From: a virus
Taxonomy: Duplodnaviria; Heunggongvirae; Uroviricota; Caudoviricetes
DNA: 48,088 bases
Strand: one strand, 5' to 3'
Virus record (IMG/VR): IMGVR_UViG_2844443253_000007
The position numbers were made by a program, and so were the translations under genes. The notes under the pieces were generated by a model that had not been told where the DNA came from, did not search any database, and was given only the letters and a program-made list of their open reading frames with translations. Shown here in pieces: positions 5,829-25,928 of the stretch (its first letter is position 1; each line of letters starts with the position of its first letter).

Positions 5829-6140
5829 TTAAATTTAGCACTGTTAAAAATTTAATCCTTAACCGGAGGGATTTCTGCACCCTCAAATCATCAGGAGACC
5901 GCCCGAAAGGGCGGTAATGAATGGTTACATTATTTAGAAAAAAATATCCGCGAAAGAGTAGAACAACAGAATTCCTGTTTCTCATTCTGTTTATCGTGTT
6001 GATGACACCGATATCCCCGCAAATTTTTGTCTGGATAATCGGAAAAATAATTGAGCCAGTTATTGAATTGTATAACGACGTGGTATGGGCGTCATTCAAC
6101 ACACTGCACAATAAAATTAATCCGTATAAGGAAAGCTGAT

Positions 6141-9479: not shown

Positions 9480-10079
9480 ATGGCGCATATACAACTGGTC
9501 AAACAAACCTCTTCCGGATTACTTCTCCCGGCGACGCCGGAGAGTTGCGATTTTTTGCATCAAATCAAAATAGGTGAGTGGATACACGCAGACTTTAAGC
9601 GTGTGCGTAACTACGCATTCCACAAGCGTTTTTTCAAACTCCTGCAACTGGGATTTGATTACTGGACTCCGGTCGGTGGGGCGATCACGCCTCGCGAACG
9701 AAAACTGGTATCAGGCTTCGTTGATTACCTGTGCGAATCAGTAGGTCGGGAACACACTCCAGCCCTGAGTGATGCCGCAGAGCAATACCTTAATACAGTT
9801 GCGACATGCAGAACCCGGGATACGGCATTGCTAAAGTCGTTTGACGCTTTCCGCGAGTGGGTAACCATTCAGGCCGGATTTTACACCGAGCATATTTATC
9901 CTGATGGTAGTCGTGGGCGCAGGGCAAAATCTATCGCATTTGCGAACATGGACGAAACCGAGTTTCAGCAGGTTTATAAATCTGTACTGAATGTGCTGTG
10001 GAACTGGATCCTGTTCCGTAAATTTTCCTCTCCGGAGGAAGTCGAAAATGTGGCCGCGCAGTTACTGGAGTTTGCGTAA
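9480..10079 (+). CDS. Prophage protein, DUF1367-like
   Basis: 199-aa ORF in nin-like region upstream of Q; family assignment by recall. Confidence 0.5.
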   Translation: MAHIQLVKQTSSGLLLPATPESCDFLHQIKIGEWIHADFKRVRNYAFHKRFFKLLQLGFDYWTPVGGAITPRERKLVSGFVDYLCESVGREHTPALSDAAEQYLNTVATCRTRDTALLKSFDAFREWVTIQAGFYTEHIYPDGSRGRRAKSIAFANMDETEFQQVYKSVLNVLWNWILFRKFSSPEEVENVAAQLLEFA

Positions 10080-10369
10080 TGGTGGATTTACGTAAAGCGG
10101 CGCGGGGGCAGATGTGCACCGTCAGAATTCCTGGCTACTGCAATCACAATCCCGAAACTTCTGTGCTGGCGCATTACAGGCTGGCGGGGACGTGCGGAAC
10201 AGCGACAAAACCACACGATATGCAGGCAGCGATTGCCTGTAGCTCATGCCACGATTTAATCGACGGGCGGGTAAAAACCAGCGATTACACCAAAGAAGAA
10301 TTACGCCTGATGCATGCAGAAGGTGTTTTTCGCACACAAGAAATCTGGAGAAAGGAAGGTTATTTATGA
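10079..10369 (+). CDS. DUF1364 (YbcO-like) putative nuclease, Cys-rich
   Basis: 96 aa with CxxC...HYR...CSSCHD; ATGA start/stop overlaps on both sides. Confidence 0.6.
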   Translation: MVDLRKAARGQMCTVRIPGYCNHNPETSVLAHYRLAGTCGTATKPHDMQAAIACSSCHDLIDGRVKTSDYTKEELRLMHAEGVFRTQEIWRKEGYL

Positions 10370-10920
10370 TTTACCCAACAAATACAGGCAAAAGCGGGGA
10401 ACACCTTCGTCTCACCACGCTGGAAAGTGTCTGGATTCAGGGAAAACTGCGCATGTGGGGGCGCTGGTCGTATATTGGCGGCGGTAAGACGGGAAATATG
10501 TTTAACCAGTTGCTGGCATCCAAAAAATTGACGAAAACAGCCGTCAATGAAGCCCTGCGCAGGATGAAAAAAGCGGGAATAGAGAAACCTGAGCTGGAAG
10601 CGTTTTTGCGAGAGATGATCAATGGCAAGCAAAAGACCTGGCTGGCGCATTGTACTGATGCAGAGGCGTTATGTATTGATAGAGTCATAAGTGAGGTGCT
10701 GGCAGAGCATCCTGGATTGATTAGTGTCCTCCGGCAACGGTATGAAGGGCGGGGGATGACTAAGCGTAAAATGGCTGAATTGCTGAATGACGCACACCCT
10801 GAGTGGTGTTTCCGGACGTGCTGCAGTCGGGTAGATGTATGGCTAAATCTTGCTGAATATATGCTCTATCTACCGATGCGTGATGCATTCTCTTCCGGGG
10901 ATCTAAAAACCGTTTGTTGA
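10366..10920 (+). CDS. Late-gene antitermination protein, Q family
   Basis: Position downstream of nin-like genes; RMWGRWSYIGGG motif resembles Phage_antitermQ family. Confidence 0.5.
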   Translation: MIYPTNTGKSGEHLRLTTLESVWIQGKLRMWGRWSYIGGGKTGNMFNQLLASKKLTKTAVNEALRRMKKAGIEKPELEAFLREMINGKQKTWLAHCTDAEALCIDRVISEVLAEHPGLISVLRQRYEGRGMTKRKMAELLNDAHPEWCFRTCCSRVDVWLNLAEYMLYLPMRDAFSSGDLKTVC

Positions 10921-11307
10921 CTCAATCTGTTATCCGGGGCTATATTCCTCACGCGCCAGCAAAATCTGGCGTCGGGATTGGCGTCCCGGATGTTTACGGA
11001 GCGATATGAGACGCGCCCGCGTCTTTTTTCATATCGTTTGCACAGTCACATTCGCGATTTATGGCGGGCTGTGTGGGGGAGCCGAAAGGCTCGCCGGTTT
11101 CCGTACCCGGTTACGCCAACCCTGCACAGTTCGCCACCAGTTCGATTGGCGTCGTCGGTGGCGATAATTTCCAAATGTACGGAGTTATCGTTATGACCAC
11201 TCAAATCTCTGTTGAAACTCTCTCCCCGATCACCCATAACCAGTGAGGTAGCCTGAGTTTAACGGACACTCCTTCCTGAAATAGAATGGCATCAGAAGGA
11301 GCTAATA

Positions 11308-11610
11308 ATGAGCAGAAAAACCCAACGTTACTCTAAAGAGTTCAAAGCCGAAGCTGTCAGAACGGTTCTTGAAAATCAACTTTCGATCAGTGAAGGCGCT
11401 TCCCGATTATCCCTTCCTGAAGGCACTTTAGGACAATGGGTTACCGCCGCCAGAAAAGGGCTCGGTACTCCTGGTTCCCGCACGCTGGCTGAACTGGAAT
11501 CTGAAATTCTGCAACTGCGTAAGGCGTTAAATGAAGCTCGCCTTGAGCGAGATATATTAAAAAAAGCAACAGCGTATTTTGCACAGGAGTCGCTGAAAAA
11601 TACGCGTTAA
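11308..11610 (+). CDS. IS600 OrfA
   Basis: Identical to other copies. Confidence 0.9.
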   Translation: MSRKTQRYSKEFKAEAVRTVLENQLSISEGASRLSLPEGTLGQWVTAARKGLGTPGSRTLAELESEILQLRKALNEARLERDILKKATAYFAQESLKNTR

Positions 11611-11645
11611 TCGAACAATGGCGACAACAATTTCCCATTGAAGCG

Positions 11646-12464
11646 ATGTGTCAGGTATTTGGTGTATCCAGGAGCGGTTATTACAACTGGGTACAGCATG
11701 AACCCTCAGACAGAAAACAAAGTGATGAGCGGCTAAAACTGGAGATTAAGGTGGCACATATCCGCACTTGCGAAACATATGGAACCCGGCGGCTCCAGAC
11801 GGAGCTGGCAGAGAATGGCATCATCGTTGGTCGTGACCGACTGGCACGTCTTCGTAAGGAGCTGAGGCTACGCTGTAAGCAGAAACGCAAGTTCAGAGCG
11901 ACTACGAACCCGAACCACAATCTGCCAGTTGCGCCAAATCTGCTGAACCAGACGTTCGCTCCTACAGCACCAAATCAGGTCTGGGTGGCGGACCTGACGT
12001 ATGTTGCCACACAGGAGGGATGGTTGTACCTCGCTGGCATCAAAGATGTTTATACGTGTGAAATTGTCGGCTACGCCATGGGAGAGCGCATGACAAAAGA
12101 GCTGACAGGTAAAGCCCTGTTTATGGCGCTCAGGAGCCAGCGCCCACCTGCCGGGCTAATCCACCACTCTGATCGAGGTTCACAGTACTGCGCATACGAT
12201 TACCGGGTCATACAGGAGCAGTCTGGTCTGAAAACATCAATGTCGCGTAAAGGTAACTGTTACGACAACGCTCCGATGGAAAGCTTCTGGGGAACGCTGA
12301 AAAATGAGAGCCTGAGCCACTATCGTTTTAATAACCGGGATGAAGCCATCTCAGTAATACGGGAATACATTGAGATTTTCTACAATCGTCAGCGTCGTCA
12401 CTCTCGTCTGGGGAATATCTCCCCGGCAGCCTTCAGGGAAAAATATCATCAGATGGCTGCTTAA
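11646..12464 (+). CDS. IS600 OrfB transposase
   Basis: Near-identical to other copies (one R to C substitution). Confidence 0.9.
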   Translation: MCQVFGVSRSGYYNWVQHEPSDRKQSDERLKLEIKVAHIRTCETYGTRRLQTELAENGIIVGRDRLARLRKELRLRCKQKRKFRATTNPNHNLPVAPNLLNQTFAPTAPNQVWVADLTYVATQEGWLYLAGIKDVYTCEIVGYAMGERMTKELTGKALFMALRSQRPPAGLIHHSDRGSQYCAYDYRVIQEQSGLKTSMSRKGNCYDNAPMESFWGTLKNESLSHYRFNNRDEAISVIREYIEIFYNRQRRHSRLGNISPAAFREKYHQMAA

Positions 12465-13111
12465 AAAAAGAACAAATGGTAGTGTCCGCTATTGCCAGTA
12501 CACCTCACAGATTCCTGTTATTACCACCGAACTTTTGGCGCAGCTTTACGGCACTGAGCCGGTGCGTATTCGCCAGAATCATCATGAGAACAAAGTACGC
12601 TTCGTTGAAGGGAAACACTTTTTCAAAGTTGTTGGTAATGACCTTAAAGAATTGCGGGTCGCTTTAAACTACTCACAAAATCCAGTTTCACCCAAAGCCC
12701 GCTCCCTCATCCTCTGGACAGAACGAGGCGCAGCACGCCACGGCAAAATGCTCGAAACCGATCAGGCGTGGGATGTGTTCGAAAAACTGGAAGACTGCTA
12801 TTTCAGTCAAAGGGATCCGTCAACGCCAGTTTCATGCCAGAAAAGTTACGACACGCGAGTTCTCTGTTATCAGAGAGGCGGTGTCACTGTTTCCACAATT
12901 CAGTTACGGGATGATGATATTGTTATTTCCCTTGAGTCATGGCTGGAACTGGCGAGAGCCAATGGTTGGTTTGTTGTTCGCAGAGATAAACTGGTGGAAA
13001 GGTTGATGCAGCTTTAAAAAAGTTCTTGCATTTTTGCACATAAACTGCTTCAATTACGGTAAGCTTCGCAAAGCTGTATCGCGAGGCGAATAGCAGACAT
13101 GGACACTTGAA

Positions 13112-13225: not shown

Positions 13226-13302
13226 GGCCCTTTAGCTCAGTTGGTCAGAGCGAGCGACTCATAATCGCCAGGTCGCTGGTTCAAGTCCAGCAAGGGCCAC
13301 CA
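13226..13302 (+). tRNA. tRNA with anticodon CAT (Ile2/lysidine-type or Met)
   Basis: Cloverleaf with acceptor GGCCCTT/AAGGGCC, anticodon loop CTCATAA, TPsiC GGTTCAAGTCC, CCA end; resembles ileX/ileZ-type. Confidence 0.8.
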
Positions 13303-13303
13303 A

Positions 13304-13380
13304 CCACCACTAGCTCATCCGGATAGAGCATCAACCTTCTAAGTTGACGGTGCGAGGTTCGAGTCCTCGGTGGTGGGCCA
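13304..13380 (+). tRNA. tRNA-Arg (anticodon TCT); unusual acceptor stem beginning with C
   Basis: Anticodon loop CTTCTAA, TPsiC GGTTCGAGTCC, acceptor CCACCAC/GTGGTGG, CCA end. Confidence 0.7.
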
Positions 13381-13382
13381 GC

Positions 13383-13458
<76 letters not shown>

Positions 13459-13461
13459 TAT

Positions 13462-13536
<75 letters not shown>

Positions 13537-13650: not shown

Positions 13651-15255
13651 ATGATTCAGCTATCCAGTAGTCACAAACTTCCAGCAGTCTACTATCTCTA
13701 CCAGCGTAACGGCGTCTACTACTTCCGTCTTAGGGTCAGACAATCAAACAATGATAGAATGACCTCAATATCATTACGGACCAAGGATAGACGCACCGCT
13801 ATGGCTTACTCAAGGCACATAAAGGCAGCACTCAAGGCAATACACGCAGACAGACCCAACGCTACCTATGAGGAAATGAGGGAACACCTTAAGGACATCG
13901 CTGAGTGTGAACTGTCTATGGGCCGTTCAGATCTCTTTGAGCCTGACATGAGGGATATCTACCGGGACCAATACGGAGAACTTGGTGAGAGCCTTACCGA
14001 TGCTCTGGCTAGTGAGCCGCTAAGCATTGACCAGCATCGTTACATCAATGAGGCCCTGAAGGTGCTAAAAGCCTGTATGAGGCGTATCGAAGCGGGAGAC
14101 AGTCAGCCTCTGATAGATTACGTCGATCTTTTTAATGATATTGATAGGCAAGATAACCAAGCAGACTCTGTGTCCCTATCTGTTAATGCTCCAGAAGTAA
14201 AACCAGAAGTTACGCCTAGCATTACCATAGCGAGCCTCTTTGAACAATACGAAGCGGAGAACTATCAGAACTGGAAGCCTGCAACCTTAAGGGAAAACAA
14301 GGCGTCACACGCTGCGTTAATCGAAATATTCGACCATCTGGGTCTCAATGCAGACGCTAACAGGGCTGACATGCTTAGGGTCCGTGATGTGCTCCAGCAG
14401 TTACCTAGGAACCGTAAGCAGCGCTTCAAGGATGTCCCACTTGCTGACCTGTTGAGCCGTGAAGATAAGACAGATTGTCTGGATGTCGTTACCATCAACA
14501 ACAAGTATCTTATTAAGATGGCTGCTGTCTTTAGGTGGGCTGTGCGCAATGACTTGATTAAAAAGAACATGACTGAGGGTCTGGAGCTTAAAGTCCCTCA
14601 GCGTAAAGCCTCAGGGGCCCGTAACGCCTTCTCTACGGAGCAGGTGGGGCAACTACTGGTCGCAGCTAAGGCATACTCTCAGAAGACCTCTGGTAAGCCG
14701 TATCATTATTATGTTACCGCCTTGGCTGCTATCACTGGGGCGAGACTCAATGAAATAGCCCAACTACAGGTCAAAGACGTCAGGACCACTGAGGCGGGAA
14801 CCGTTTATATTCATATCAATGAAGACGATAGTAGTCTACCCGGTAAGAGCATCAAGAACGCTCATAGTGACCGCTGTGTGCCTCTGGTCGATGGGGCCTA
14901 TGGTTTTATATTGGCTGACTTTATGGCGCTTGTAGAGACCCGTAGAGGCGCTGACGGTGATGACGCTATGGTGTTCGATGGTCTGCGTCTCATGAAGAAC
15001 GGTTACGGTGAGCAGGTGAGTAAATGGTTTAATCGGACGTTGTTGCCTAAAGTCCTCGTAGACCGTAGCGGCTTAGCGTTTCACTCGTTTAGACATACAG
15101 TTGCGGCCCAGTTAAAACAACATGGGGTCGAGTTGGCGTATGCACAGGCGATCATGGGGCATAGTTCAGGGTCTATTACGTACGACCGTTATGCTAAAGA
15201 GGTCGAGGTTGATAGGCTGGTCAATGTGATGGCTGATGTTTATAAGGAGACCTAG
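13651..15255 (+). CDS. int: Tyrosine recombinase / integrase (534 aa) adjacent to tRNA cluster
   Basis: C-terminal catalytic signature (R in ITGARLNE, HSFRHT, final Y in ITYDRY); N-terminal arm-binding-like domain. Confidence 0.85.
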   Translation: MIQLSSSHKLPAVYYLYQRNGVYYFRLRVRQSNNDRMTSISLRTKDRRTAMAYSRHIKAALKAIHADRPNATYEEMREHLKDIAECELSMGRSDLFEPDMRDIYRDQYGELGESLTDALASEPLSIDQHRYINEALKVLKACMRRIEAGDSQPLIDYVDLFNDIDRQDNQADSVSLSVNAPEVKPEVTPSITIASLFEQYEAENYQNWKPATLRENKASHAALIEIFDHLGLNADANRADMLRVRDVLQQLPRNRKQRFKDVPLADLLSREDKTDCLDVVTINNKYLIKMAAVFRWAVRNDLIKKNMTEGLELKVPQRKASGARNAFSTEQVGQLLVAAKAYSQKTSGKPYHYYVTALAAITGARLNEIAQLQVKDVRTTEAGTVYIHINEDDSSLPGKSIKNAHSDRCVPLVDGAYGFILADFMALVETRRGADGDDAMVFDGLRLMKNGYGEQVSKWFNRTLLPKVLVDRSGLAFHSFRHTVAAQLKQHGVELAYAQAIMGHSSGSITYDRYAKEVEVDRLVNVMADVYKET

Positions 15256-15343
15256 AGGAGACCATAGTCTAGGATGACACTTACTACAGACCTGTGTGGT
15301 CATGTTTTTGACTCATAGTTTTCTCTACTTGTCAAGGGATAAT

Positions 15344-15366
15344 TAATACGACTCACTATAGGGAGA
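15344..15366 (+). promoter_or_regulatory. T7-type promoter, exact 23-bp consensus TAATACGACTCACTATAGGGAGA (predicted +1 G at 15361)
   Basis: Exact match to the T7 RNA polymerase class III promoter consensus. Confidence 0.9.
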
Positions 15367-15463
15367 AGGGACACAAAAAGTTTTCTCTTCTAGGATGACA
15401 CTTACTACAGACCTGTGCGGTCATGTTTTTGACTCATAGTTTTCTCTGCTTGTCAAGGGGTAA

Positions 15464-15486
15464 TTAATACGACTCACTATAGGGAG
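15464..15486 (+). promoter_or_regulatory. T7-type promoter, exact 23-bp consensus (copy 2)
   Basis: Exact match. Confidence 0.9.
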
Positions 15487-15583
15487 AAGGGACACAAAAA
15501 GTTTTCTCTTCTAGGATGACACTTACTACAGACCTGTGTGGTCATGTTTTTGACTCATGGTTTTCTCTACTTGTCAAGGATAA

Positions 15584-15606
15584 TTAATACGACTCACTAT
15601 AGGGAG
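15584..15606 (+). promoter_or_regulatory. T7-type promoter, exact 23-bp consensus (copy 3)
   Basis: Exact match. Confidence 0.9.
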
Positions 15607-15630
15607 AAGGGACACAAAAAGTTTTCTCTT

Positions 15631-16004
15631 CTAGGACAACTAACCGTAACTTATCGCATCCTTTCAGGGGCGGGATGACCAATTACAGACACCAAGCGTT
15701 CTACTTAAAGTGAATGCTTCCTGTGTGCTCTGGGTCAGTCGATAAGTGAATAGCAATAAGACACAATCATCTTAATTATGGTCTCTAGTCCCTACAGGGG
15801 CTTAACTTAAAGTTAACTTAAAGACACAATTAAAGATTAACTTATAGTATTACTTAAAGTTAACTTAAAGACACAATTAGAGATTAACTTTAAGTATTAA
15901 ATAAAAGATTTAATTAAAGACCAATTAAAGATTAACTCTAAGGGAATACCTTAAGGGGTGATGATATTTATAATAATCAATCACCAAACCTATAGGTCTT
16001 CTCT
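15631..16004 (+). repeat. AT-rich non-coding region with reiterated CTTAAAG / TTAAAGA motifs (T7-group left-end / origin-like)
   Basis: Units such as cttaaagttaacttaaagacacaattaaagattaactta repeated; no ORFs. Confidence 0.7.
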
Positions 16005-16076
16005 TGAAGTGGCACACTGAATTTGGCCACCTGAACAGAGGTGATATGCTCACCTCAGAACAACACAGGTGCTCCA

Positions 16077-17245
<1,169 letters not shown>

Positions 17246-17253
17246 CCACTTCA

Positions 17254-17480
17254 TCTAGGGTCTCTCTATAGGTCTTCTCTATGGTCTCTCTATAGGTCTC
17301 TCTAGGGTCTCCTCTAGGCATTACCCCCAGAAGCTAACTCTATGGCCCTCTATGGTCCTCTATGGCCCTGTACGTCATTCTTTAGGATGCCCTGTAGTTT
17401 CGTATAGCCTGATGCCTAGAGAGACCCTAGAGAGACCCTAGAGTGGCTCCTAGAGAGACCCTCCCAGTAGCTCCGCACAG
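17254..17480 (+). repeat. Short direct repeats TCTCTATAGG / CTATGGCCCT / CCTAGAGAGACC (T7-group genome-end-like)
   Basis: Reiterated 8-12-bp motifs, non-coding; continuous with 15631-16004 region once IS911 is removed. Confidence 0.65.
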
Positions 17481-17622
17481 CTACATCGTCATCATCATAG
17501 TATTCAATCTCAAAGTCATTCTGTTTGCATCCTGTTGTCCTGCTGGTCTCCCTTCGCTTGGGGACTTTGAGTAGGTCAGTGGGGGTGCGACTTCAGGGTG
17601 CAAACAAAAAGGAAATCAAGCG

Positions 17623-17778
17623 ATGTCTCAACAACCACAACAACCACAACAAGAAATCAGCATCATTAACCTCGACCAGCTTGTGTCCATGACCTCAGTT
17701 GAAATTGCTGAGCTGACAGGCAAGGAGCACCGAAATGTCCTTCGTGATATTCGTAAGATGCTCGAAGAACTTAACGCG
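17623..17778 (+). pseudogene. Rha-family phage regulatory protein, N-terminal fragment truncated by IS1
   Basis: TSVEIAELTGKEHRNVLRDIRKML matches Rha/antirepressor N-terminal motif; ORF runs into IS1. Confidence 0.7.
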
Positions 17779-17833
17779 GGTAATGCTGCCAACTTACTGA
17801 TTTAGTGTATGATGGTGATTTTAAGGTGCTTGC

Positions 17834-19871: not shown

Positions 19872-20416
19872 ATGTTGCATTTAAAAAATATTACTACGGG
19901 TAATCCGAAAACAGCAGAACAATATCAGATGACAAAACGATATTCGGTCACCTGGCTTTTTTCAGAAGACGGAAAAAACTGGTATGAAGAGCTGAAGAAT
20001 TTCGCCAGGACACAATTAAAATAACTTACACCGGAGACGGTCGCGTGGTGTGGGTCGGTAAGGATGTGACAGGCATTGAACCCCGTAACGCCAGTGTTAT
20101 TGAAGTTCCTGATATTACCGCCAACCGCCGCATTACCGCGCCGGGTTACTGGTTTTACCGCAATGATGAATTTGTCTTTGACTACAGACTCAAAGCGGAA
20201 GATGAGCGTGATGCCCTTCTGGCTCAGGTCAGTGCCCGGACAGGGGAATGGGAAGAAGACCTGCTGCTGGGGTTAATCAGCGACGAAGATAAAGAAAAGC
20301 TGAAAGCCTGTCGTATTTACGCGAAATCGCTGCAGGCGATGGATTTCAGCACCATCACTGATAAATCCTCATACAACGCCATTGAATGGCCCGCCTCTCC
20401 GGAAGGTTCTTCCTGA
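19872..20416 (+). pseudogene. Tail fiber assembly protein, frameshifted near 20000
   Basis: N-part [19 protein letters not shown]... stops at 20024; C-part continues in another frame and ends with IEWPASPE typical of Tfa. Confidence 0.65.
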
Positions 20417-20439
20417 TTTAATTTATCGCGAGAAAAACA

Positions 20440-21354
20440 ATGTCTGTAGTGATATCAGGTGCGCTGACTGATGGCGCAGGTATCCCCATGTCCGGATACC
20501 ATATTATTCTGAAATCCCGGGTAAACCCCCCGGAAGTGGTGATGAACACTGTTGCTGATGTGATGACAGGAAACGATGGTGAATACTGTTTCCATGCGCG
20601 GACTGGAAAATATGGTGTGTATCTGAAACAGGACTGGCGCAACGAGTACAACGTTGGCGACATTGCTGTATATGAGGACTCAAAGCCCGGCACGCTGAAT
20701 GACTTTCTGATTGCTCCTGATGAGGGCGACCTGAAACCGGATGTCGTCAAACGCTTTGAGGAAATGGTGGCGCAGGCGCAGCAGAGCGCCGGGGCCGCAG
20801 CCGGAAACGCACAGCAGACGGCGCAGGATGTGGCGGCAGCCGCAGGTTATGCCCGCGCAGCAGAGCAGGCCAAAAATGACATTGATGCTGCGCTGACCGG
20901 CACTCTGAAAACGGCTAACCATCTGTCTGAAATCGCAGCAGCAGGCGAAAAGGCACAACAGAAGTCCCGGGATAATCTGGGGCTGAAAAGTGCGGCCACG
21001 ATGGAAGCACAGAGCGACATTTACGACCGGACAAAAGGCCGTCTGGCGATACCCGGCGCATTCGGCTTTGGGTGTGCTTTTCTGCCTGAAGATGTTATCC
21101 GTTTTGACACTAAGAGTGATTTCCTGGCCTGGGTAAGGAATGCGCTGCCAGGTGAATATTCCGTTGCTGGCCCCTACGGCATCATCATACCCGACACACG
21201 GTTTGAAGGGGTGCTCAGCATCCGGTGGACTGATGCACGCCCTGAGACAACAGAACCGCGGTACAGAGCCAAATCCCTTACTTTTTACGGCATTAACGGC
21301 CCCATTTATCACACCCGCTACCGCTACTGGCCCATATCCAGACTGACTGGGTGA
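20440..21354 (+). CDS. Phage tail fiber protein (N-terminal conserved type)
   Basis: 304 aa, Ala/Gln-rich central region typical of side tail fibers. Confidence 0.6.
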   Translation: MSVVISGALTDGAGIPMSGYHIILKSRVNPPEVVMNTVADVMTGNDGEYCFHARTGKYGVYLKQDWRNEYNVGDIAVYEDSKPGTLNDFLIAPDEGDLKPDVVKRFEEMVAQAQQSAGAAAGNAQQTAQDVAAAAGYARAAEQAKNDIDAALTGTLKTANHLSEIAAAGEKAQQKSRDNLGLKSAATMEAQSDIYDRTKGRLAIPGAFGFGCAFLPEDVIRFDTKSDFLAWVRNALPGEYSVAGPYGIIIPDTRFEGVLSIRWTDARPETTEPRYRAKSLTFYGINGPIYHTRYRYWPISRLTG

Positions 21355-21704
21355 AAATAAATATAACCACAGAAGATATTATTTACAGAATCGTGGCGAG
21401 CTCTGTCCGCAACAGATGGGGAGACCCTGACATTGGCGGGCTGATTATTGCTGCGTACCAGGGAGAAGCTGACGGTGATAAAGTCATCAGACTTGTCAGG
21501 GGGCAGTCATACAGAGGCTCACGACTGGGACCGGTGGGGATTTCAGTGCCCAGTACTCCCACCGGAACGTATATAGCATCCCCACAATTTTTCATTACGG
21601 GATGTTCAGAGCATTCATTACCGGGGTCATATTGCGCCCTGTCCGGGGTGCCGGATGCTCATGTCTCTGGCGCAATGCCCGGGCTTTTTATTCGCACATC
21701 GTGA
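21351..21704 (+). CDS. Tail-fiber-associated hypothetical ORF (possibly remnant of fiber C-terminus)
   Basis: GTG start overlapping upstream stop; region from 21538 is duplicated at 41736. Confidence 0.4.
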   Translation: MKINITTEDIIYRIVASSVRNRWGDPDIGGLIIAAYQGEADGDKVIRLVRGQSYRGSRLGPVGISVPSTPTGTYIASPQFFITGCSEHSLPGSYCALSGVPDAHVSGAMPGLFIRTS

Positions 21705-21713
21705 GGAATGCAC

Positions 21714-22278
21714 CGTGGAAATTAAAAAAATCATTAATCCCCGTTATACCGAAAGTGGCGCAGTAGACTGTGACGTTTTTTTTGACGACAGGGACCAGGC
21801 AGTCCCCTACACAGCCACCGCTGATGATGTCGCTCCGACGGGTCAGCAAATCTGGCAGGAACTGCAAAGCGGCAAATGGGGTGAGATAGCCCCATTCACT
21901 GTGACACCAGAAATGCTGGAAGCGGCCAGAGAGGCCAGACGTCAGGAAATTGAAGCATGGCGCGCAGAACAGGAGGCGAAGCTGTTCACGTTTGAATGGA
22001 ACGGTCGTATCTGGAATGCTGGTCCCGACTCACTGGGCCGCCTGTCCCCGGTAGTCATGCTGGCAAAATCTGTCACAGCACAAACACATATGGCGTGGAG
22101 CGATGCCGATAATCAGCAGGTGAAACTGTCGATGCCGGAACTGGAAGAACTGGCGGCAGCAATGGTGCAGGCGCAGGTCGATCGCAACGATGAGATTTAT
22201 CGCCGTCAGCGGGAGCTGAAGGAAGAGCTGAATAGTCTGAAGGATTTGAATTCGGTTAGGAATTTTATCGTGGAATAA
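21714..22278 (+). CDS. Tail fiber assembly protein (Tfa-like)
   Basis: [25 protein letters not shown]... typical Tfa N-terminus; GTG start; second diverged copy at 41911-42475. Confidence 0.7.
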
Positions 22279-22478: not shown

Positions 22479-23336
22479 CTAATTGGGTGATAACAGATCC
22501 TGTGTATGGGCGTTTCCCTTTGTGCGTGCGTTGATGCTGGTAACGGTAAACGTCATGATGAACACGACCGCGAATAAGACGACAATCGTCGGAGCTGGTG
22601 CGCTGTCGATAAAAAAGGACAGCCAGACACCAGTCATTGACACTATTACCGATATGCCAGTCGCCAGTAGGAGCGCAATATGAAAGCGTTGTGTCAGGAG
22701 TACTGCAATGGCGCCAGGCGCAATGAGCAGAGAAATAGAGAGAATGATACCTACTGCTTTCAGCGTCGCCACAATGGTCAGGGAAACCATGCACAGCAGC
22801 CCATAATGCAGCCATCTCGTATGCAAACCGCTTACCTGCGCCTGTTGATAATCAAAGCTGAACAGCAAAAAATCCCGCCATTTTACGCTAATAACAAGTG
22901 TAACCAGCCCGGCAATAATCACCGTCTGGATTATGTCGCCGATGGTTATCCCGAGCATGTCGCCGAAAAGAATATGGTCAAGATGTACGTCTGGTTTAAT
23001 TGCAATATACAAGATCAGACCTGCGGCAAACATGCCAGAAAAAACAATCCCCATAACTGTATCTTGCTTGATTCGGCTGTTGTCTTTCAGGTATCCCGTC
23101 GCCACCGCGCAGAATACTCCGGCGACGAATGCCCCTGTAGCCAGAGGTAACCCCAGAATCCAGGTAAGCACGATGCCAGGAAAAACCGCATGACTCATCG
23201 CGTCACCCATCAGTGCCCAACCTTTCAGGACCAGAAAGACCGACAGCAGCGCACAGGGTATGGAAACTACCAGTGAAATCAGCAGTGCGTGACTCATAAA
23301 GGTGAACTGCAGTGGCTCCAGTAATAATGCCATCAT
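22479..23336 (-). CDS. sitD: Mn/Fe ABC transporter permease SitD
   Basis: 285-aa polytopic membrane protein, last gene of four-gene operon. Confidence 0.85.
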   Translation of the reverse strand: MMALLLEPLQFTFMSHALLISLVVSIPCALLSVFLVLKGWALMGDAMSHAVFPGIVLTWILGLPLATGAFVAGVFCAVATGYLKDNSRIKQDTVMGIVFSGMFAAGLILYIAIKPDVHLDHILFGDMLGITIGDIIQTVIIAGLVTLVISVKWRDFLLFSFDYQQAQVSGLHTRWLHYGLLCMVSLTIVATLKAVGIILSISLLIAPGAIAVLLTQRFHIALLLATGISVIVSMTGVWLSFFIDSAPAPTIVVLFAVVFIMTFTVTSINARTKGNAHTQDLLSPN

Positions 23337-24190
23337 GAGCGATCCTCCAGCGCTTTATGCGCACGCCGACGATTTGCCAAAAGTCCATGGGTGGGCGCAA
23401 ATACAAATGCTAAAAGAAACAGCAGTGTCTGCGCCACCACGATGATTCCACCTGTCGCGCCGTCCAGAAAGTAACTGACCCACGCGCCGAGGAAACTGGT
23501 TACACTGCCAATAGTTACAGCAATTATGAGCAGGCGGGGAAAACGATCGGTTAACAACCATGCTGTTGCACCGGGAGTCACCACCAGACAGATCACCAGA
23601 AAGGCACCAACCGTTTGCAGCGCCGCAACGGTCGAAACCGACAGCAGGGTGAAGAAGAGGATTTTTAATCTGCCCGGATGTAATCCAATAGCACGGGCGT
23701 GATTCTCGTCGAAAAAGGTCACCATAAGATCTTTCCATTTGAAAAAAAGCACGATGATCGAGAGAATGCCAATGATAGTGAGTTGCAGGATATCCGCCGG
23801 ATCGATTGCCAGAATATTGCCCAGGACGATGGTCTGAATGTTCACGGATGTCGGGTTCAATGACACCATAAACAGCCCCAGGCCAAAAAAGGACGAGAAG
23901 ATCAGGCCGATGATGGCATCTTCTTTTAAGCGGGTGCGTTGGTTAAGAAACAGCATGCTGCCCGCTGCCAGTCCGCCGGAAAAGAAGGCTCCCAGAGAAA
24001 ACGGAAGCCCCAGCATATATGCCCCCGCAACACCCGGGACAATAGAGTGCGACAGCGCATCGCCAATCAGCGACCAGCCTTTTAGCATCAGATAGCATGA
24101 CAGGAAAGCGCAGAGACCGCCGACCATTGCCGAGACCCACATCGCATTGAGCATATATTCATAGCTGAAGGGTTCCAGTAGCACGTTCAT
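23333..24190 (-). CDS. sitC: Mn/Fe ABC transporter permease SitC
   Basis: 285-aa membrane protein, overlapping start/stop with neighbours. Confidence 0.85.
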
Positions 24191-25014
24191 CTTGCTTCCC
24201 TCTGCACCGCTGACGGTCGATGTGCCACAAAAGGGCGTTCATCGTCAGTAATAATGCTTTCTTCCGAGCCGTTAAGTGTGACATGGCGCAGTACGCCGCT
24301 AAAAGCCAGCTCCAGGTTCTCGGCTGTAAAAGTGGTGTCTGTCGGCCCGCTTGCCAGGACGGTGCCTTTGACCATGACCGTATAATCGCAAAATGTCGTG
24401 ACTGAGCCGAGATTGTGCGTTGAGACAAGCATCGTTTTGCCTTCCGCGCGTAACTCCCTCAACAGGCTGATGATTTTCGCTTCGGTTTTCACATCAACGC
24501 CGGTAAAAGGTTCATCCAGCAGGATCACATCACCCTGCTGTGCAATTGCTCTCGCCAGAAAGACGCGTTTCTTTTGTCCACCGGAAAGCTCGCCGATTTG
24601 ACGATGGCGAAAATCCACCATATCGACACGTTCCAGCGCATCGGTGACAATCTGACGATCCCTCTTTTTGGCTATACGCAACATACCCATATGCCCATAG
24701 CGGCCCATCATCACCACATCTTCCACCAGTACAGGAAATGACCAGTCAACCTCTTCTGACTGAGGGACGTAGGCAACCAGGTTTTTCTGTAGCGCCTGTC
24801 GCGTGGGAATACCCAGAACAGATATCTTTCCGCTGGTCAGACGCACAAATCCCATAATCGCTTTAAACAACGTCGATTTTCCGGAACCGTTTACCCCAAC
24901 CAGAGCGGCAATAGATCCACTTGGTACTGTGAAGGATGCATCGCGCAGTGCTGTGTGCCCGTTACGCCAGGTGACAGTAACATCATTAACGACAATGCCT
25001 GCAGATTGCATCAT
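24187..25014 (-). CDS. sitB: Mn/Fe ABC transporter ATP-binding protein SitB
   Basis: Walker [13 protein letters not shown] signature LSGGQKKR, Walker B ILLDEP. Confidence 0.9.
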
Positions 25015-25928
25015 TATTTCTCCCTTTTCCCGGCTTTAATTCCCTGTACCAGCGTACTGGTAGTAACCTTAAGAAGGTCGATATACGTAGGTACCGGGCC
25101 GTTTTCTGTGCTCAGGGAATCGACATAGAGCACACCGCCGTAGTGTGCGCCGGTTTCACGCGCAACCTGACGCGCTGGTTTATCGGAAATCGTACTCTCG
25201 CTAAAGACTGCCGGGATATGATTTTTCTTAACTATATCAACAACCTTACGTACCTGCTGCGGTGTTCCTTGTTGATCGGCATTAATCGGCCACAGATAAA
25301 GCTCTTTTAGCCCCAAATCGCGTGCGAGATAAGAAAAAGCCCCTTCACTGGTGACCATCCATCGCTGATTCTCAGGGAGTTCCGTAATCTGCTTACGCAG
25401 GGGGGCAAGGGTTTGGGTAATCTTGGCTTTATAAGTATCGGCATTACGTTGGTAGGTTTGTGCATTTGCCGGATCGTATTTTATCAACGCATCACGAATA
25501 TTATCGACGTAAATCAGAGCATTATCTGGCGACATCCATGCATGGGGATTAGGTTTGCCCTCATAGGGTCCTTCGGTGATCCCTACTGGCGTCACACCCG
25601 AAGAGACAATTACTTCTGGAACCCCATTGAGATGCTGGTAAAAGCGTTGGAACCACAATTCCAGATTCATACCATTGGCGAGAATCAGTTGTGCCCCCTG
25701 CGCACGTTTAATATCGCCAGGGGTAGGCTGATACTCATGAATTTCTGCACCAGGCTTGGTTATGGATGAGACTTCTGCAGCATCTCCAGCCACGTTTTTG
25801 GCCATATCCGCGATGATGGTAAATGTTGTAATGACCTTGAATTTTTCAGTTGCACTTGCCTGAAATGCGATCGAGCAGGTGAGGGCGAGGCACCCCAAGA
25901 GCATGGTTACTTTTTTTATTGAGTGCAT
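25014..25928 (-). CDS. sitA: Periplasmic Mn/Fe-binding protein SitA
   Basis: Signal peptide plus metal-binding SBP fold; operon order sitABCD. Confidence 0.9.

Follow-up and report, generated by a model that had tools for sequence, protein, structure and literature searches.

Three tandem perfect copies of the T7 class III promoter consensus stand directly behind an intact tyrosine integrase gene in a stretch of 48,088 nucleotides from the IMG/VR virus record IMGVR_UViG_2844443253_000007 (called the window here, at its full length). The array is natural and recurrent and is not contamination. It belongs to an integrative island found beside tRNA-Gly genes in the Enterobacterales, and this island is probably a satellite of virulent T7-group (Studiervirinae) phages, which it appears to exploit through copies of their promoter, replication origin and concatemer junction, and through a capsid-like protein. 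The copy in the window is a truncated, decaying remnant, unable to be autonomous or to complete such a cycle.

Islands of this class were already known. Chen and Schneider (Nucleic Acids Res 34:1133-1147, 2006; doi 10.1093/nar/gkj511) reportedly described genetic islands marked by tandem T7-like promoters in the chromosomes of enterobacteria, and treated them as one class. Their paper reportedly covered 12 islands of 4-13 kb in nine enteropathogens, with 2-3 such promoters in tandem, a tyrosine integrase upstream of them, direct repeats of 17-24 bp and no polymerase gene; it is also reported to have suggested satellite phages that a T7-like RNA polymerase activates. The window shares with those islands the tandem T7-group promoters, the lack of a polymerase gene and the upstream tyrosine integrase; its intact relatives share the direct repeats at the ends, the size of a few kb and the few phage-like genes 3' of the promoters. 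There is no difference at the level of the class. The array, whose novelty was implied in the original prediction made from the letters of the DNA alone, is a rediscovery of a known kind of element, and the central satellite hypothesis was reportedly also already published. A later review refers to Chen and Schneider (2006) where it treats the variable sit island, and it is this island that the window contains.

Promoter array and its recurrence in Escherichia coli

The 48-kb window holds exactly three copies of the 23-mer TAATACGACTCACTATAGGGAGA, all on the plus strand; this 23-mer is the T7 class III consensus and covers -17 to +6. The copies lie at 15344-15366, 15465-15487 and 15585-15607, span 264 bp in all and have predicted starts at the G at 15361, at 15482 and at 15602. 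No further match was found in the window at up to 3 mismatches, and none was expected from shuffled sequences. Each promoter occupies one unit of a plus-strand tandem array at 15268-15636, for which Tandem Repeats Finder (TRF) gave a period of 121 bp, 3.1 copies and 96% matches. The units measure 121, 121 and 120 bp and differ pairwise at 2-5 positions, all of which fall outside the promoter and the segment from +1 to +20, and GGGAGAAGGGACACAAAAAG directly follows all three promoters. The original prediction had read the array accurately: its three perfect copies at 120-121-bp spacing on one strand and their shared initiating sequence are all present, and the limits that it set (15269-15630) are a few bases off. 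It had also stated that few promoters of T7 itself are perfect, and the exact 23-mer is indeed found in 6 of the 17 annotated T7 promoters (phi6.5, phi9, phi10, phi13, phi17 and phiOR). What it missed was the context that explains the array, namely an integrase, a block that resembles a replication origin, copies of packaging sites and decay by insertion sequences (IS).

The promoters depart from the T7 class III consensus at no position, so that they very likely function with T7 RNA polymerase. Intact as they are in the window, they should still be active in a cell that a T7-type polymerase has entered. Copy 3 with its flanks has its best T7 match at phiOR (T7 39209-39250), and BLAST of the non-coding region against phage genomes likewise returned promoter-sized matches only, the best in T7 being phiOR. 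An Rfam scan of 15200-17700 gave nothing meaningful (one chance miRNA match, E 0.38), sigma-70 promoters and intrinsic terminators were at chance level in a scan of 15200-16010, and the predicted fold of the transcript leader, which includes a 5' hairpin, was not significant overall (z-score -1.4).

Of 5,426 complete E. coli genomes, 58 carry the 121-bp unit, in each case on the chromosome, whereas none of 72,556 PLSDB plasmids does. The unit always lies just downstream of a tyrosine integrase of about 535 amino acids by a tRNA-Gly gene. The database search of the unit that accompanied the original prediction as a suggestion therefore supports its preference for natural duplication over a vector insert. 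The usual E. coli site is tRNA-Gly(ccc), between actS and the ETT2/yqeG region, where the tRNA 3' end is repeated at the limit of the island; intact relatives at this tRNA carry a 17-27-bp direct repeat at the far end. Strains have 1, 2 or 3 perfect promoters, the window showing the highest number seen, and this variation in copy number fits natural tandem duplication.

In the window the integrase (13651-15255, plus strand, 534 amino acids) is directly upstream of the promoters on the same strand. The open reading frame (ORF) list together with Pfam and PHROG assigned it a DUF6538-like N-terminal region (PF20172), a Phage_integrase catalytic domain (PF00589, E 2e-17) and PHROG 1 (integrase). 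Similarity to the E. coli islands begins within tRNA-Gly(tcc), located by ARAGORN at 13462-13536 on the plus strand, and this tRNA gene is the integration site of the island, on its attL side. The att-like core GATTCCCGCTGCCCGCTCCA has a single copy in the window, on the tRNA side; there is no second copy, so attR is absent. Direct repeats at both ends are thus found in the intact relatives and not in the window copy, whose distal repeat is absent because the distal end was lost to IS1. The window island uses a tRNA-Gly(tcc) borne by a prophage, and other strains use the chromosomal tRNA-Gly(ccc).

Copies of phage origin and packaging signals

Beyond the promoters the island carries a plus-strand AT-rich block (15780-15960) with TTAACTTAAAG-type repeats, which TRF placed in arrays at 15802-15937. 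Its best non-promoter match in T7 is the AT-rich half of the primary replication origin, a similarity seen only with a more sensitive, word-7 blastn against T7. The window segment 15823-15908 aligns to T7 5912-5995; a Klebsiella island matches T7 5930-6000 at 74.6% over 71 bp (E 6.5e-6), and the AT-rich block of a further island (locus L024) matches the same place. Dinucleotide shuffles reached the observed score in 0 of 1000 cases for the window, 0 of 1000 for the Klebsiella pneumoniae ATCC 13883 island (L003) and 1 of 1000 for L024. The block thus resembles the T7 primary origin, and the arrangement, in which promoters are directed into an AT-rich region, is origin-like. In T7 the primary origin comprises phi1.1A, phi1.1B and the AT-rich region (T7 5848-6000), and in the islands too, tandem promoters lead into an AT-rich block that aligns with 5930-6000. 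The two differ in that the island promoters are of the class III consensus and those of T7 are weaker class II promoters, and in that promoter spacing is 120 bp in the island and 75 bp in T7. T7 also has secondary origins at phiOL and phiOR.

A conserved element lies between the last promoter of the islands and the AT-rich block, which begins about 170-200 bp further on, and this is another difference from the T7 origin. Comparison of loci showed the non-coding 23-mer CGCATCCTTTCAGGGGCGGGATG (15655-15677, plus strand) to be identical in seven of them: the window, L024, L003 (Klebsiella), L005 (Rouxiella), L007, L009 (Morganella) and L022 (Edaphovirga). Its flanks vary across the genera. It may form a 5-bp hairpin and matches no Rfam family. 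The AT-rich block is closed by a short inverted repeat, GGTGAT...ATCACC (15957-15985, plus strand, by direct reading), that is kept in relatives.

The islands also carry both halves of what looks like a T7 packaging signal. The plus-strand segment 14165-14184, within the integrase coding sequence, copies the right end of the T7/K11 terminal repeat together with the class II pause site, at 19 of 20 positions against T7 148-167. It is written CTCTGTGTCCCT/ATCTGTT or ACTCTGTGTCCCT/ATCTGTT, and its counterpart at the concatemer junction of T7 and K11 is tctctgtgtccct/ATCTGTT. It is the sole such match in the window, where 0.01 were expected. Four other integrase genes have the motif at 19/20: those of L023 (E. 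coli 21AR0133, which is the closest intact relative), L003, L024 and L006. In L029, a metagenomic contig, 17/20 positions agree. In the window the motif is overprinted on the SVSLSV linker of the integrase; the L029 integrase is of another lineage and has it elsewhere along the gene. This different placement argues that the DNA motif, rather than the peptide, is what is conserved.

The other half, a copy of the left boundary of the terminal repeat, is found in intact islands between the last gene and attR. At the right end of the T7 genome this boundary reads cctttaaaatATACCATAAAAATCTGAGtgactatc/TCTCACAG. L029 has an exact 18-mer, ATACCATAAAAATCTGAG, and L003 and L008 have it with 2 mismatches; a related copy can be recognised in L023, and the motif is shared by K11. 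None of 1000 shuffles reached the match. Once the island forms a circle or concatemer, its elements follow one another as genes, left boundary, attP, integrase 5' end, right end with pause site, integrase 3' end, short repeats, tandem promoters and AT-rich block. This is colinear with the T7 concatemer junction, which runs through the terminal repeat, pause site, short repeats, phiOL and AT-rich region. Both boundary copies keep the order and orientation relative to the promoters that they have in T7. The segment between them is different: it is unrelated to the terminal repeat, measures about 350-900 bp and holds attP and the 5' part of the integrase gene. Plasmids with T7 junction or packaging signals are reportedly packaged by T7 (Chung and Hinkle 1990; Zhang and Studier 2004 are said to have shown this).

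Such an island exists in joined form. L029 is a MEGAHIT k141 contig of 6,628 bp whose ends overlap exactly by 141 bp, which leaves a unit of 6,487 bp. L030, from a different metagenome assembly, is 100% identical and circularly permuted across the L029 ends. Neither contains a tRNA gene or flanking chromosome. L029 has promoters CATTAAGACTCACTATAGGGAGA and AATTAAGACTCACTAAAGGGAGA, an integrase with the pause-site motif, the 23-mer with one deletion, the AT-rich block, the genes for Rha, a small ORF, DUF6971 and the capsid-like protein, and the left boundary copy. The 6,487-bp element therefore exists as a circle or as a head-to-tail repeat, two forms that the assemblies cannot separate.

Related islands in the Enterobacterales and the remnant in the window

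An integrase search yielded 20 loci in Enterobacterales species representatives, with homologues 65-87% identical. The genera with loci are Klebsiella, Pectobacterium, Lonsdalea, Rouxiella, Morganella, Enterobacter, Citrobacter, Buttiauxella, Shimwellia, Kluyvera, Proteus, Serratia and Edaphovirga, in addition to E. coli and Shigella. According to ARAGORN, tRNA-Gly stands just upstream of the integrase in 17 of the 20 loci, and in 14 of the 20 it is tRNA-Gly(ccc). Wherever the far repeat was found among them, the island was 5.4-7.6 kb long; intact islands overall range from 4.3 to 7.6 kb. Promoters of the ...CACTATAGGGAGA type, on the same strand and 3' of the integrase, are present in 13 of the 20 loci under a strict pattern, with varied specificity regions, and four further loci have related promoters under a looser one.

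Promoter specificity varies by host genus and follows the phages of the host. The K. pneumoniae ATCC 13883 island has an exact T7 consensus, an exact K11 class III consensus (AATTAGGGCACACTATAGGGAGA) and a third type; the K11-type 35-mer matches 157 Klebsiella phage records, at 9-10 places per genome. The best matches of the promoter type of the Citrobacter island are phages of Cronobacter, Shigella, Enterobacter and Citrobacter, and in several Cronobacter, Enterobacter and Citrobacter phage records the best place is near the right genome end, at the phiOR position. A second island lineage, in E. coli and Shigella, bears the Citrobacter-type promoter. No T7 protein homologue was found in the window or in four islands by tblastn with gp1 and ten other T7 proteins (RNA polymerase, DNA polymerase, gp4, portal, gp9, gp10 and terminase were among the queries). 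Some islands have a DUF4145 gene between integrase and promoters (L003 7624-8256; L024 2170-2811), a position that looks like a variable cargo slot, possibly defence-related. One 7.8-kb record with an island-type promoter, PQ520054.1 (L026), was considered as a packaged satellite and set aside as a mislabelled T7-like phage fragment. It is labelled 'Enterococcus phage IME_EF3, partial genome' and reads as a T7-like enterobacterial phage, with an apparent terminase end, a phiOR-type promoter and a 908-amino-acid ORF taken as RNA polymerase.

By gene content, the islands are integrative elements without most virion genes. The first island gene is of Rha or KilA-N type, and the full set of Rha, small ORF, DUF6971 and capsid-like gene is present in L023, L003, L024 and L029. 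In L023 the order is integrase, non-coding module, Rha, small ORF, IS5, DUF6971, 373-amino-acid protein and attR; minimal 4.3-kb islands of E. coli contain the integrase, a KilA-N gene and a small ORF only. Another E. coli strain with an intact island is ET881. The last protein of the full set (373-402 amino acids) has no sequence match in Pfam, PHROG or PDB. It has 49 homologue clusters, and every cluster with a named organism comes from the Enterobacterales. An AlphaFold2 model from 35 sequences (pLDDT 70, pTM 0.64) had only HK97-fold capsid proteins or encapsulins among its top 50 Foldseek matches in the PDB. These include the T7-like phages HRP29, PhiM1 and Kp9, as well as phi29, T5 and the size-redirecting Ccm of SaPIbov5, with probability 1.0, E about 1e-7 and TM-scores of 0.3-0.5. 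The model thus points to an HK97-fold, capsid-like protein. No profile similarity links it to T7 gp10, DUF6971 shows no sequence homology to T7 gp9, and DUF6971 is not mentioned in the literature that could be searched. An IMG/VR search with the capsid-like protein returned five distant relatives only (L036-L040, 32-36% identity). They lie in prophage-like contigs of high-GC bacteria (GC 0.58-0.61), the homologue being at the contig edges and in one case beside a KilA-N gene. They may be a sister family outside the Enterobacterales and have no bearing on packaging.

The window copy has decayed. It retains the integrase, the pause-site copy, the three promoters and the origin-like block; the small ORF, the DUF6971 gene, the capsid-like gene, the left packaging site and attR are missing. 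When the proteins of an intact island were compared with the window by tblastn, only the integrase and a Rha stub matched. The packaging signal is thus reduced to its right-end/pause-site half, for which recognition by terminase is putative. Decay is indicated by two insertions, one in the short-repeat region and one that truncates the Rha gene. The former, foreign to the island, is an IS911 element at 16005-17253 (plus strand) with a 3-bp TCT target duplication; the label was given by sequence reading, from an InsA-like ORF at 16078 and terminal inverted repeats, and is not tool output. It splits a region that is uninterrupted in L001 and L023. Behind it lie plus-strand arrays of 10-12-bp repeats found by TRF at 17254-17462 (TAGGGTCTCTC, CTCTATGGCC and GAGAGACCCTA), comparable to the short-repeat arrays by the T7 genome ends (the T7 CCTAAAG arrays); homologous arrays in L001 are differently expanded. 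The E. coli island arrays (window 17254-17462; L001 15066-15300) are also rich in the T7 primase motifs (G/T)GGTC and GTGTC, as in one example with 16 against 2.2 expected on the minus strand, a count inflated by tandem repeats. The enrichment is absent in the Klebsiella and L029 islands, and we dropped it as evidence for an origin, since it is limited to E. coli islands and mostly an effect of the repeats.

Just upstream of the first island gene is a conserved plus-strand leader (17540-17622), recognized from a 32-mer that the window, L001 and L024 share without a difference and of which L003 and others have related forms. The gene itself, of the Rha family (Pfam Phage_pRha, E 6e-10), is represented on the plus strand at 17623-17805 by its 5' end, cut by IS1 from about 17778, and the remnant comprises the first 52 codons.

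The window as a whole is a sit island within a defective lambdoid prophage. Its tRNA cluster (13226-13536) consists of Met-cat, Arg-tct, Thr-tgt and Gly-tcc, the last being the integration site, and lies in a lambdoid-prophage remnant with DUF1367, DUF1133/Q-like and ORF6N genes around it. Q-region genes occupy 9480-13017 and prophage tail-fibre genes 20045-22278. The sitABCD operon for a manganese/iron ABC transporter follows on the minus strand at 22479-25928 (SitB equivalog, 594 bits). Other TRF arrays in the window are at 2112-2156 (23 bp, 1.9 copies) and 43816-44028 (60 bp, 3.5 copies).

The satellite proposal and its rivals

The features of the intact islands suggest the following cycle. 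The island would be silent beside its tRNA-Gly gene until a T7-like phage infects the cell and its RNA polymerase starts transcription at the tandem promoters of class III consensus. The island genes, namely those for the Rha or KilA-N regulator, the small protein, DUF6971 and the HK97-fold capsid-like protein, would then be transcribed, and this RNA may also serve the phage replisome as a primer for replication at the neighbouring origin-like block, as at T7 phi1.1A/B and its AT-rich region. On an excised circle or concatemer, transcription would pass the left-boundary copy and attP and continue into the integrase gene, where the polymerase would meet the right-end copy of the terminal repeat and the ATCTGTT pause site. 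The phage terminase might take this look-alike for a concatemer junction and package island DNA, possibly in smaller heads that the island capsid-like protein builds or resizes. The predicted termini of the packaged DNA are a left boundary of the ...TATG/TAATAG type and ...GTGTCCCT. We infer induction, replication, packaging and transfer alike from sequence features. A bolder form of the proposal has in our judgement an even chance of being correct. According to it, these elements are still active satellites of T7-group phages, T7 included, whose promoters serve both as induction switch and as replication primer. They would have one half of a split junction overprinted on the integrase frame and an HK97-fold head protein of their own, and their lineages would be tuned to the phages of each genus, some of them, such as that of K. 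pneumoniae ATCC 13883, to two polymerases.

Several points weigh against the satellite proposal. Experimental evidence for induction, replication, packaging or transfer was not found in the searchable literature. T7 degrades host DNA and stops host transcription, and a timely supply of Int and Xis is a difficulty. The AT-rich block is separated from the last promoter by about 170-200 bp, whereas in T7 it follows immediately, and the implied terminal repeat of about 350-900 bp, containing attP and part of the integrase gene, compares with 160 bp in T7 and 180 bp in K11. The model of the capsid-like protein is of moderate confidence and its TM-scores are low (0.3-0.5). Tandem copies in a chromosome would account for the circular contigs equally well. 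The capsid-like gene is absent from many E. coli copies, which are of minimal size (4.3 kb), so that either the class can do without it or those copies have degenerated. The window copy itself cannot complete a satellite cycle.

The main rival holds that the island serves anti-phage defence or acts as a decoy. The T7 promoters would be a sensor of infection that drives Rha or KilA-N, a small membrane protein and a capsid-like protein that poisons assembly, and the look-alike sites would titrate the phage polymerase, replisome and terminase, so that the host population gains without transfer. The genes directly 3' of the promoters do encode DNA-binding proteins of anti-repressor type, the DUF4145 cargo of some islands is of a kind seen in defence contexts, and minimal islands, in which a capsid-like gene is lacking, are common in E. 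coli. However, defence alone leaves unexplained why an integrase and att sites are conserved across genera, why both terminal-repeat boundaries are copied in the right order and orientation, and why a circular or tandem form without flanking chromosome exists. As the sole explanation we consider it unlikely, though it is compatible with the satellite proposal: known satellites also interfere with their helpers, and the two readings overlap. We regard as far less probable a decayed T7-like prophage, or a T7 fragment captured by an integrase, in which the cis-acting sites persist by descent and have no present function. The colinearity of promoters, origin-like block, terminal-repeat boundaries and short-repeat arrays with the T7 concatemer junction would follow from such an origin, and the window copy is clearly decaying. 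However, no T7 protein homologue is left in the islands searched, and the capsid-like protein is unrelated in sequence to gp10. A compact layout of 4-8 kb with intact ORFs is kept in at least 20 species, whose integrases are 65-87% identical, promoter types track the phages of each host, and the promoters stay perfect while flanking bases vary. This recurrent architecture with host-tracking, perfect promoters argues for purifying selection rather than decay. A laboratory artefact has hardly any chance of being right. The 23-mer is indeed the sequence used in expression vectors, and a vector or synthetic T7-promoter cassette in the assembly would contain it, but the whole 121-bp unit in 58 independent complete E. 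coli chromosomes, against none of the PLSDB plasmids, refutes such an origin; its chromosomal context is conserved, and the sequence past +6 differs from the T7 phi10 leader.

The satellite proposal has partial parallels in known systems. Capsid-forming PICIs encode portal, protease, terminase and connector proteins as well as capsid proteins. Those PICIs (bioRxiv 10.1101/2022.09.08.507074) and SaPIbov5, with its Ccm, resemble the present islands in having a satellite-encoded protein of HK97 fold, here predicted from the model, that is able to build or resize heads. They differ in that the present islands have one capsid-like gene and DUF6971 only and share no sequence similarity with those families. 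The PICMI (phage-inducible chromosomal minimalist islands) of the Vibrionaceae (PMC10803314) are likewise very small integrative satellites of virulent phages, dependent on a helper for replication and packaging. Their abstract describes them as having no capsid-remodelling genes and as packaged in the form of concatemers, and it reports no phage-polymerase promoters; the proteins and hosts are other ones. In Salmonella Choleraesuis, an integrase and one gene (STM0947/STM0948) are repeated 12 times, in a paper that cites Chen and Schneider 2006 (PMC2784778). A related island may have been amplified in tandem there. Neither satellites of T7-like phages nor later experimental work on these islands were found in the searchable literature.

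The promoters of the window are thus known and natural, part of a relic that is here non-autonomous, and they define no new kind of element. T7 is the textbook example of a virulent phage, and the expression system in widest use derives from it. If the satellite proposal is true, E. coli with T7 and Klebsiella with K11 would become models of a tiny element that parasitises a virulent phage by cis-acting mimicry, and the islands would amount to a natural, host-matched collection of promoters for phage polymerases. Therapy that uses T7-like phages would also be affected, by interference and by the transfer of genes. The island may in addition help to explain the link of the sitABCD iron/manganese uptake region to mobile DNA in Shigella and E. 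coli.

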